Origin: Leucoraja ocellata
Taxonomy: Eukaryota
Length of the DNA stretch: 64,000 bases
Assembly: GCA_036785375.1 (NCBI GenBank)
Contig: JAWMAR010000028.1
Span: 6,634,001-6,698,000, forward strand
Direction: 5' to 3'
The position numbers and the translations under genes were made by a program. This document shows positions 43,601-46,600 of this stretch, piece by piece (the first letter of the stretch is position 1; every line of letters begins with the position of its first letter). The notes beneath the pieces were generated by a model that did no database searches, was not told the origin of the DNA, and saw only the letters and a list, made by a program, of their open reading frames with translations.

Positions 43601-46600
43601 CTCTTGTGATGCTCTGCCAGGCCTGTATTGCACCCATCTTTAGATCATGCTTGTTTTGGGGGCTAGTCCCTTCAGTTTTCTCTTCAGCATATAAAAGGCA
43701 TGCTCAATTGGGTTCAGATCGGGTGATTGACTTGACCACTCAAGAATTGACAATTTTTTAGCTTTGAAAAACTCCTTTGTTGCTTTAGCAGTATGTTTGA
43801 GATCATTGTCTTGCTGTAGAATGAACCGCCGGCCAATGAGTTTTGAGGCATTTGTTTGAACTTGAGCAGATAGGATGTGTCTATACACTTCAGAATTCAT
43901 TACGCTACTACCATCAGCAGTTGTATCATCAATTAAGATAAGTGAACCAGTACCTTCAGCAGCCATACATGCCCAGACCATAATACCCCCACCACCATGT
44001 TTCACAGATGATGTGGTATGCTTTGGATCTTAGGCAGTTCCTTCTCTCCTCCATACTTTGCTCTTGTCATCACTCTGATATAAGTTAATTTTCATCTAAT
44101 CTGTCCACACGACCTTTTTCCATAACTGTGTTTGCACTTTTAAGTATTTCTCGGCAAACTGTAACCCGGCCATCCTATTTTTGTGGCTAACCAGAGTTCG
44201 GATCTTGCAGTTTAGCCTCTGTATTTCTGTTCATGAAGTCTTCTGCGGACAGTGGTCATTGAAAAATCCACACCTGACTCCTGAAGAGTGTTTCTGATCT
44301 GTCGGACAGGTGTTTGGGGATTTTTTATTTATTATAGAGAGAATTCTTCTGTCATCAGCTGTGGAGGTCTTCCTTGGCCTGCCAGTCCCTTTGCAATTAG
44401 TAAGCTCACCAGTGCTCTTTCTTCTTAATGATGTTCCAAACAGTTGATTTTGGTAAGCCTAAGGTTTGGCTGAGGTCTGTAACAGTTTTATTCTTATTTC
44501 TCAGTCTCATAATGGCCTCTTTGACTTTCATTGACACAACTTTGGTCCTCATGTTGATAAACAGCAATAAAAGTTTCCAAAGGTGATGATGGAAAGTGGA
44601 TGCTGAGAGCTCTCTTATACCTGCATTAAGGTGGCAATTAAACACACCTGAGCAATTACAAACACCTGTGAAGCCATGTGTCCCAAACATTATGGTGCGC
44701 TGAAATGGGGAGGGGACTATGTATAAACAGCTGTCATTTCTACATGGTGAAACTGAAATCTAAAAATGGCCTTTATTAAAATCTGACAATGTGCACTTTA
44801 ACCACGTGATTTTTTTCTATTCCAAATCTCAAATTGTGCAGTACAGAGGCAAATAAATAAATGATGGATCTTTGTCCCAAACATCATGGAGGGCACTGTA
44901 TATCCTCTCAACTGGAACAGTTTCTTTATTCTCTAGATTCTGTGATTTTAATCCGTGATTCACTTTCTTCAAAACAAATATAAGCACTAAGATGAGTTGC
45001 ATTAATCAATAACTTCAGAAATTGAAGATGACCAGCATTCTAGGAAATAAATAAATAGGTTTATTTTGCACAAGAATGCTGGGCAGATGGAATAACACAT
45101 GCATTAATGCTCTGATGACCTGCACTAGGCAGCTCGCAGTAATCCAGATCGCAGTAAGTTAGCTAGTAAATTGCACCCATTTTGCTTTGTTAGAAAACCA
45201 ACCTGGTGCCATTGCAATTTTACTCTTTCCTTCAAGAATGGCCTTCCCATCAAAAGTCATAGCTGGCAACATTCCCTGTTGGAAAAAGATGATATTTTCC
45301 TTCTGTAGGCGAAAGTAATCATTTTTAACAAAAAACTCCTTTGTTGAATCCATTGTCCGACCACTGGTCATGATATACCTGAAACATAATACAAAGTGCT
45401 TTAAACAAAAAAAAAGTCCTCCAGAGCAACTAATAAAAATCCAAACAGTTGGATCAAGATCAAAATTATTTTGGCCAAATAACATCCGCTCATTATACAG
45501 TAACTGGAATTGAAACCATTGTCTTGGGTGGGAGATTGCAACCTTCACGTGGTCCGCCCGGTATCGACGAATGCAATCGAACTGGTGCACAATCAAGTAA
45601 GATCAAATAGAACAAGTTGTCCTACAACTTTAGGCTGTGCACGCCATACGCAAGAAGAAGAAACCATTGTCTGACCATTAGTCATCATATACCCCACAGA
45701 TGTAAAAAGTCAACTAACCCCACAAATACAAATCTAAACTATTGGATCAATTTAACAATAACTTTGGCAGCCAAGCTGATCTGCATTTTATGTAGTAATT
45801 GTAATTGAATTGAGAAGGAAAATATATGGAAAACTAAATATTGGTCTGCTCATTCCTGTAACATGTTTTATGCTCGGGTTTCCAGCATCTGCAGAATATT
45901 AGTGTCCACCATAAAAATATTACTTGTACAGAAACCAAACTTGAAAATTCTAGAGTGCAATTCTACACAGTACAAGATCAGTTAATCCTAAAGAAACACA
46001 AGAAAGCATACAGCTAATCCTCACAGGGTTAACATACAGTTAATATGACAAAATATAATGAAACAATACAAGAAATCCTACAACAAGCAGGAAAAAAATA
46101 ACACAGAAGAGAGTGCCATCTGCTGGTGAAATAATCAAATAGGAATAAATAGATCAAAAAATGTTCACTTCTTTTGGTTTATTAAATGGGTGCTCTGTGT
46201 AGCATTAGTTCCTGGTTCAGTGGCCCATGGAAATGAGAATACATCTCAAACTTCCTACATCCACTTTACCCCCTCTCCCTTTTAAAACTGCTGTAAAGTT
46301 CACTTTCCCTCCTAAATTTTATTGGAGGTCCAGATAGGTTGTGGCGTATGGAATATTTTACCACAGGGAGTAGTCACGTCAACATTTCAAACAAAAAGGA
46401 TTAAGGCAAGAAGACAGAGTAAAGAGAGAAACAACACTGCCTCAGGTTGGCCCCACCTCTGCTGCTGAAGATCTGCACATAATAAATGAATTGTGGGATC
46501 CACCTTCAAACTTGGGTTTCTCACTTGCATGGCTTTGTTCAGGATATATGTTCTTTAACATTAAGAACTCTTGATTTTTCTAATTCACACCATAATCTCT

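Follow-up and report, generated by a model that had tools for sequence, protein, structure and literature searches.

Family A, a short retroposon of Leucoraja ocellata with two copies in the 64-kb window (the whole stretch of 64,000 nucleotides analysed here), is probably a non-autonomous element of the Vingi/Ingi type, in which a head derived from a Vingi LINE would cut its own 5′ end, Vingi machinery would move the unit and a hairpin body would have come from another source. A first-pass annotation of one window copy had proposed a ribozyme-headed SINE without Pol III boxes that cuts its 5′ end out of host transcripts and borrows a LINE enzyme, possibly that of an RTE element.

Family A copies in the window and across the genome

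The window copy is a 135-bp insertion on the plus strand (45525–45659) between exact 13-bp target-site duplications (TSDs; GAAACCATTGTCT, 45512–45524 and 45660–45672 by direct sequence comparison), and every coordinate first given for the insert and its duplications was verified in the sequence. It opens with a predicted minimal HDV-like ribozyme head of 54 nt (45525–45578; cut predicted 5′ of 45525), which was recognized by a structural descriptor, by covariation and by a model built without family A. In the body (45585–45642), pairing by position places an outer stem (45585–45591/45636–45642) around a hairpin (45614–45620/45624–45630), the two 3′ stems lying where they had been annotated. 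A 3′ terminal motif CATACGC (45645–45651), a putative reverse transcriptase recognition site found by comparison of ends, is followed by an (AAG)n tail (45652–45659) read directly from the sequence. The second copy, which belongs to subfamily A2, was found by descriptor on the minus strand (48973–49107; head 49054–49107); it has a G1–U36 pair and is sense to the host gene.

The window copy itself is probably a weak or dead passenger. Set against a consensus-like copy, its head has three changed positions (1, 36 and 39), and 2 nt of the outer 3′ stem are missing; its 3′ part folds no better than shuffled sequence (z = −0.53), whereas that of the consensus-like copy folds better (z = −3.5). Its first pair is U1–G36, against G1–U36 in the family, and the published descriptor requires G1 paired with a pyrimidine (PMC6326823, seen in excerpt), so this copy, which breaks that rule, is probably weak. 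It lies in the intron upstream of an exon of a UAP1-like gene (45203–45378, minus strand; PF01704, E = 2.4e-7; AGX1/AGX2, E = 3.5e-24) and is antisense to that gene; it would therefore not be cut from that pre-mRNA, and the idea that it excises itself from the host transcript fails here. Window positions 45346–45770 form a degenerate tandem duplicate of the start of the UAP1-like exon, without the acceptor AG, and the element is inserted into this duplicate.

A 25-nt head motif matches the 3.44-Gb genome 10,912 times and a 26-nt tail motif 10,645 times, with no match to either reversed control; these counts allow at most one mismatch and are lower bounds, in an assembly that seems to hold duplicated regions (locus L001 repeats the window flanks at 93–99%). 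Subfamily A2 has 2,587 matches. We fetched 120 loci, mostly head-anchored, of which 78 have non-redundant flanks. The head is reached in 67 of these 78 copies and begins with GGGG in 54 of the 67; among these non-redundant, mostly head-anchored copies, the commonest base never exceeds a frequency of 0.49 upstream and reaches 0.87 or more at bases 1–7. TSDs, mostly of 11–13 bp, flank 55 of the 67, and 45 of these 55 stop no more than one base from G1; G at base 1 stands with U36 in 55 of 64 aligned copies. Among 30 tail-anchored copies the head pattern is present in 21, the remainder being 5′-shortened or variant, and we noticed no shared extension upstream of base 1. Conservation and TSDs thus stop at G1, where heterogeneous 5′ ends running past P1 would have told against the annotation, and motif count and flank alignment bear out its picture of a short, high-copy retroposon (at least 10,900 copies) whose shared 5′ start coincides with the first base of an HDV-like fold. 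A T precedes G1 in 33 of the 67 copies (p = 4e-4 against an assumed background of 29%), a possible target preference.

Copies are units of about 137 bp with TSDs of 8–15 bp, and in this biased, mostly head-anchored sample they depart from the majority sequence by 3.8% on average; at another family A copy, empty-site reads show a 13-nt overlap. Variable TSDs, a microsatellite tail, dispersed high copy number and the lack of an ORF identify family A as a non-autonomous non-LTR retroposon. A classical Pol III SINE would have a tRNA-, 5S- or 7SL-derived head and internal boxes, none of which emerged from Rfam, box and tRNA scans: no tRNA gene was found in window positions 44500–50000, and a crude scan with simple patterns found no A or B box in the consensus-like copy, in agreement with the annotated absence of Pol III boxes. 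Of the proposed SINE with LINE machinery, the high-copy short retroposon stands and the label does not; strictly, family A is a non-autonomous LINE-type retroposon.

Near-identical sequence is present in sequencing runs under seven organism labels, and a metagenome scan gave seven matches, all of them lacking the remainder of the element. At L055–L062 (near 19.26 and 19.42 Mb of C1 of the assembly) lie arrays of approximately 2-kb units, every unit carrying an A2 copy with the same flank; here A2 was amplified within a tandem repeat, not by retroposition. Pieces of other repeats, including CR1/L2-like reverse transcriptase ends, often lie beside copies (L096, L121 near the locus centre, L127 and L128), and one frame in such fragments may resemble a GIY-YIG/Penelope-like protein.

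The HDV-like head and its relatives

The strict HDV descriptor matches twice in the 64-kb window, both times at a family A copy; neither 40 Markov-simulated sequences of 128 kb nor 20,000 head shuffles gave a match. Descriptor and covariation agree on a nested double pseudoknot of P1, P2, P3 and P1.1 in HDV order, on the plus strand in the window copy, and the strict descriptor places the insert start at base 1 of P1 and the other elements where they had been annotated. P1 pairs 45525–45531 with 45554–45560, P2 pairs 45534–45540 with 45572–45578, and P3 (ACC/GGT) closes L3, TTCACGT (45541–45553). P1.1 is a single pair, C45546–G45561, which is C–G in 13 of 13 aligned heads. The alignment also shows P4 replaced by a stemless remnant (45562–45567), 6 nt between P1.1 and J4/2, as the annotation had said, so that the head has the minimal, P4-less form of an HDV-like ribozyme. 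J4/2 is CGAA (45568–45571), and the role of its first base, the putative catalytic C45568, is inferred from the consulted parts of PMC4836649 and PMC6326823. The latter, as excerpted, names U20, C24 and G25 in L3 and a C first in J4/2 as descriptor residues; U20, G25 and C44 are present in 13 of 13 aligned heads, C44 being the invariant catalytic candidate, and C24 in 12 of 13.

These 13 heads come from four families: A, a second short family B, and two Vingi-like LINEs, V1 and V2. Across them, 95.7% of the alignment cells are paired, compared with 36–48% in slid controls, and 12 of 18 pairs have changed on both sides while the loops and the catalytic C stay constant, which bears out the predicted conservation of P1–P3; because the four families are few and related, the pair counts are not independent events. 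No gap is needed outside P4 to align the heads of the four families. Those of A and B each measure 54 nt and lack P4, whereas both LINEs keep P4, with 20–24 extra nucleotides at that place. A and V1 are identical at 14 of 15 loop positions and at 18 of 34 stem positions, and the A1 and A2 copies differ at two head positions, both unpaired.

The first-pass annotation had identified UUCACGU as the L3 of the CPEB3 ribozyme and proposed a search with CPEB3 and HDV models. Its relatives support the assignment: V1 (L284:4101–4174, minus strand), V2 (L298:304–382) and B (L257:1484–1537, minus strand) score 64.2, 50.2 and 39.6 bits against Rfam RF00622, above the gathering threshold of 35. Family A itself does not reach 35 bits and has no match at E ≤ 10 (locus search) or E ≤ 1 (RF00622); the Rfam search of the locus returned four weak unrelated matches, none overlapping the element. 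A model does find family A when only B, V1 and V2 go into it, the window copies ranking first of four matches (26.0 and 19.5 bits; rough E-values 0.0018 and 0.051) with exact bounds, including 45525–45578.

Genome-wide, at the two CpGs in head positions 41–45, sense-strand G>A changes are about twice as frequent as C>T. CpG decay was compared as a gauge of selection on C44: among 11,180 sequences, C44T occurs 663 times against 1,535 for G45A, and at the control CpG C41T occurs 1,046 times against 1,949 for G42A; the ratio for C44/G45 against the control gives odds of 0.80 (p = 3e-4), with the G>A excess seen at the control too and a CTAA subfamily as a confounder.

Vingi-like LINEs and the origin of the body

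The published 5′ end of Vingi-2_Gav (supplement of PMC5786205) agrees in L3, in the GT that follows P1 and in CGAA. A motif taken from it matches the genome 113 times (control, 3), and the matches form three groups, V1, V2 and B. V1 is a 3.14-kb LINE whose copies are 95–97% alike and carry TSDs of 10–12 bp in five of six copies tested; its domains are APE and reverse transcriptase (RT), and RNase H gave no match in any of three frames scanned. The second family of this kind, V2, is about 63% alike to V1 in DNA. Both have Vingi anatomy (a single ORF with APE and RT, no RNase H, about 3 kb), and it is by this anatomy that we name them Vingi-like; V1 agrees with the description of a single ORF with APE and without RNase H in the excerpted text of PMC13708176. 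Homologues of V1 are about 950 aa long, the named ones coming from Anolis (53%; not labelled Vingi), amphioxus, sea urchin and insects; the PDB holds no close relative, the best match being L1 ORF2 (E = 2e-15). No intact V1 ORF is present among the 128 scored of 10,067 candidates, the longest open frame being 819 aa, so amplification may be over.

Family B comprises units of about 165–175 bp with TSDs and an (AAG)n tail (copies at L251–L260, L263–L273, L275–L278 and L280) and has 3,559 tail matches at no more than two mismatches. In most of 18 copies checked, a T, often within the TSD, occupies the expected G1. The bodies of A and B are alike in architecture by eye, with local alignments no better than shuffles (200–378 of 500 score as high).

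The 5′ part of family A is homologous to a Vingi 5′ end by alignment, covariation and model, as expected of a bipartite Vingi derivative. V2 ends in GGACACGAAA..AAG, V1 in AGACACGAAAAGAAG, subfamily A2 in CACACGAAAGAAG and B in GACTCGAT; the motif before (AAG)n is GACACGA(A) in V1 and V2, CACACGA-AAGAAG in A2 and CATACGC in A1. Shared head, shared terminal motif and similar TSDs together point to a Vingi-like LINE, not RTE, as the partner. The borrowed LINE enzyme of the annotation would then probably be that of a Vingi-like element, the LINEs compared being V1, V2 and the Nimb-like elements described below.

The body is another matter. Beyond the roughly 6-nt terminal motif and (AAG)n, family A has no significant 3′ likeness to the Vingi-like LINEs: the A body gives no significant match to the V1 or V2 tails (238–490 of 500 shuffles score as high), and the V1 and V2 3′ UTRs are only about 10–25 nt long and lack an A-type hairpin. 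The annotation's suggestion to match the tail to the 3′ UTR of an autonomous LINE found no counterpart for the body in any tail compared (V1, V2 and three Nimb-like). With no such match in V1 or V2, family A would not have arisen from either of these LINEs by simple internal deletion; on sequence comparison, its best reading is a hairpin body flanked by a head and a terminus of Vingi type.

An alternative that we hold to be rather unlikely derives family A by simple internal deletion from a Vingi family, now extinct or missing from the assembly, that had the same head and 3′ UTR. Elements of this kind have been described for RTE, Ingi, Vingi and R2 (PMC5786205), with hedgehog Vingi derivatives, NARTc and RIME as models, and a parent could have escaped our searches, since pattern searches see near-exact relatives only and the protein search scored 128 of 10,067 candidates. 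Against it stand the short, hairpin-free 3′ UTRs of V1 and V2, the loss of P4 in both short families where both LINEs keep it, and the failure of the head, tail and long-P4 searches to find a parent. In the search for a LINE with an A-type head, none of the 37 matches has a matching LINE ORF behind it, and two further head/tail searches (55 matches each) gave no recurrent LINE-like flank, judged from the strings listed. Candidates rejected in these searches were a long-P4 version of the head as LINE parent (16 matches, all variants of short elements) and a shared-tail parent (two matches, both rearranged copies). A derivative of this kind differs from the preferred Vingi-type reading in origin only; the mechanism is the same.

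A Vingi-derived head might also be mobilized by another LINE, either RTE or the young Nimb/I-like LINEs that a PF14529 search recovered (L160–L171 and L172–L201), which carry a gag-like ORF1 and an ORF2 with APE, RT and RNase H. The Vingi-like copies seen are all broken; the Nimb-like elements have full ORFs of 1,248–1,268 aa without a stop and (AAG)n tails, one of which contains a TGGCGG..TGCAC..CCGCCA hairpin recalling the A body. This resemblance is not significant (36–343 of 500 shuffles score as high when A1 and A2 are compared with three Nimb tails), the Nimb tails lack the ACACG motif and none of 12 Nimb 5′ regions has an HDV head. We therefore regard the Nimb-like LINEs as the weaker candidate for mobilizing partner, and movement by a non-Vingi LINE as distinctly unlikely.

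RNA 5′ ends, known systems and significance

Four RNA runs were mapped onto the consensus-like copy; they come from a coded organism, C, which may not be the window species. In the single-cell run X21, whose read counts may include duplicates, the head is covered to a depth of about 1,900 in sense and 570 in antisense, and 1,552 reads carry loose letters directly before base 1. Their consensus (agreement 0.8) is what we take to be a SMART-type template-switch adaptor; it ends in its own GGG, followed by the four Gs of the element, and this speaks against strand invasion. In run X24, from another study, 633 such reads have an adaptor end within a mixed consensus (0.45), and in run X23 no adaptor appears at base 1 among the rows listed. 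A neighbouring, more abundant repeat shows no adaptor at its listed boundaries. The adaptor before G1 indicates that, in organism C, the predicted cut site is where family RNA begins, in line with the annotated 5′ end; it also fits a capped transcription start.

The head could accordingly be mainly an internal promoter: transcription would then initiate at G1, and the ribozyme, having lost P4, would be a vestige or of secondary importance. Template switching at G1 cannot tell a cap from a 5′-OH, Pr77 of L1Tc/NARTc is promoter and ribozyme together (PMC3383444, in the part consulted), and minimum-energy folds of both window copies contain no pseudoknot, a structure that the program cannot model. 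We consider this unlikely: stems have been replaced by compensatory pairs with loops and C44 kept, which is expected of an RNA catalyst and not of a DNA promoter, both head differences between A1 and A2 are unpaired, and P4-less HDV-like ribozymes are active (according to excerpts of the theta preprint and PMC6326823).

Under the favoured Vingi-type reading, family A copies would be read through by host Pol II, and the head is predicted, by analogy, to cut itself 5′ of G1 with C44 as general acid, a step modelled on the chemistry of HDV/CPEB3 (PMC4836649) and on L1Tc/NARTc (PMC3383444), both as excerpted. The cut would free a unit RNA with a protected 5′-OH end; a Vingi ORF protein would then bind the 3′ motif before (AAG)n, nick the DNA and reverse-transcribe the unit RNA to G1. 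Reverse transcription that reaches G1 would let each new copy inherit an intact ribozyme without upstream flank. The head would have descended from a Vingi 5′ end and the hairpin body from another source.

Ribozyme-headed non-autonomous retroposons are already known (NARTc, RIME), and a review states that some metazoan LINEs and SINEs use HDV-like ribozymes (PMC6765202, in part). In the excerpted text of PMC3383444, the trypanosomatid Ingi/L1Tc elements NARTc, RIME and SIDER resemble family A in being short and non-coding, with an HDV-like ribozyme cutting just before +1 and a brief 3′ likeness to a LINE, and the NARTc head is 97% identical to that of its LINE over 77 nt. Family A, in contrast, has a 54-nt P4-less head (identical to that of the nearest resident LINE at 32 of 49 core positions), an animal host, an (AAG)n tail and more than 10,000 copies. 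Vingi LINEs and their internally deleted derivatives (Vingi-1_EE, Vingi-2_Gav and Vingi-1_Acar; PMC5786205) are a further comparison, and the Vingi-2_Gav 5′ end is like that of A; family A differs in a body that has no match in V1 or V2. The LP-SINEs of molluscs (PMC4758252) and SINE2-1_AMi (PMC5786205), as far as the excerpts describe them, are likewise short with a LINE-derived 5′ piece, but LP-SINE heads come from Nimb/RTE 5′ UTRs and are unrelated to A by eye, and SINE2-1_AMi has a tRNA head ahead of its Vingi piece. Minimal HDV-like and theta ribozymes share with A the missing P4 and the catalytic C first in J4/2, but in the part of the theta preprint consulted they come from metagenomes and from gut phages, beside tRNAs, and not from animal retroposons.

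The mammalian CPEB3 ribozyme (RF00622; PMC4836649, excerpts) shares G1–U36, U20/G25, a single C–G P1.1 with a U–U and a four-nucleotide J4/2; it differs in being single-copy and intronic with P4, whereas family A has other P1–P3 sequences and no score. That heads of the Vingi-like LINEs and of B pass the RF00622 threshold suggests that the CPEB3 ribozyme is a domesticated Vingi 5′ end. In the literature searched, no paper names both Vingi and CPEB3, and the text of a paper on ancestral CPEB3 ribozymes (PMC8233481) does not contain 'transpos', 'retro' or 'origin'. The same literature, Repbase and Dfam lying outside the search, gave no P4-less vertebrate retroposon with a novel body and no description of family A, just as the annotation named none in cartilaginous fish; an earlier database entry is quite possible.

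Family A is of note for four features: an animal host for a P4-less head, the parallel family B, RNA 5′ ends at the predicted cut site and the Vingi–CPEB3 link. Taken further, A and B might be vertebrate retroposons built on the smallest HDV ribozyme and actively cutting thousands of host transcripts at G1, and together with the Vingi LINEs they might represent the lineage behind the CPEB3 ribozyme as a single domesticated Vingi 5′ end, Vingi-type heads then being a plausible cellular source of vertebrate HDV-like ribozymes; we advance this only tentatively, placing it a little short of an even chance. If the head is active, one animal genome would hold more than 10,000 minimal HDV-like ribozymes, a form confined to microbes and phages in the literature examined, and host RNAs would be cut wherever a sense copy lies in an intron or UTR. 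Vingi enzymes are under development for gene insertion (PMC13708176, as excerpted), and the 137-nt element offers them a minimal template of natural origin. With Vingi-like heads that score as CPEB3 ribozymes, the origin of the memory-linked mammalian ribozyme becomes directly testable.
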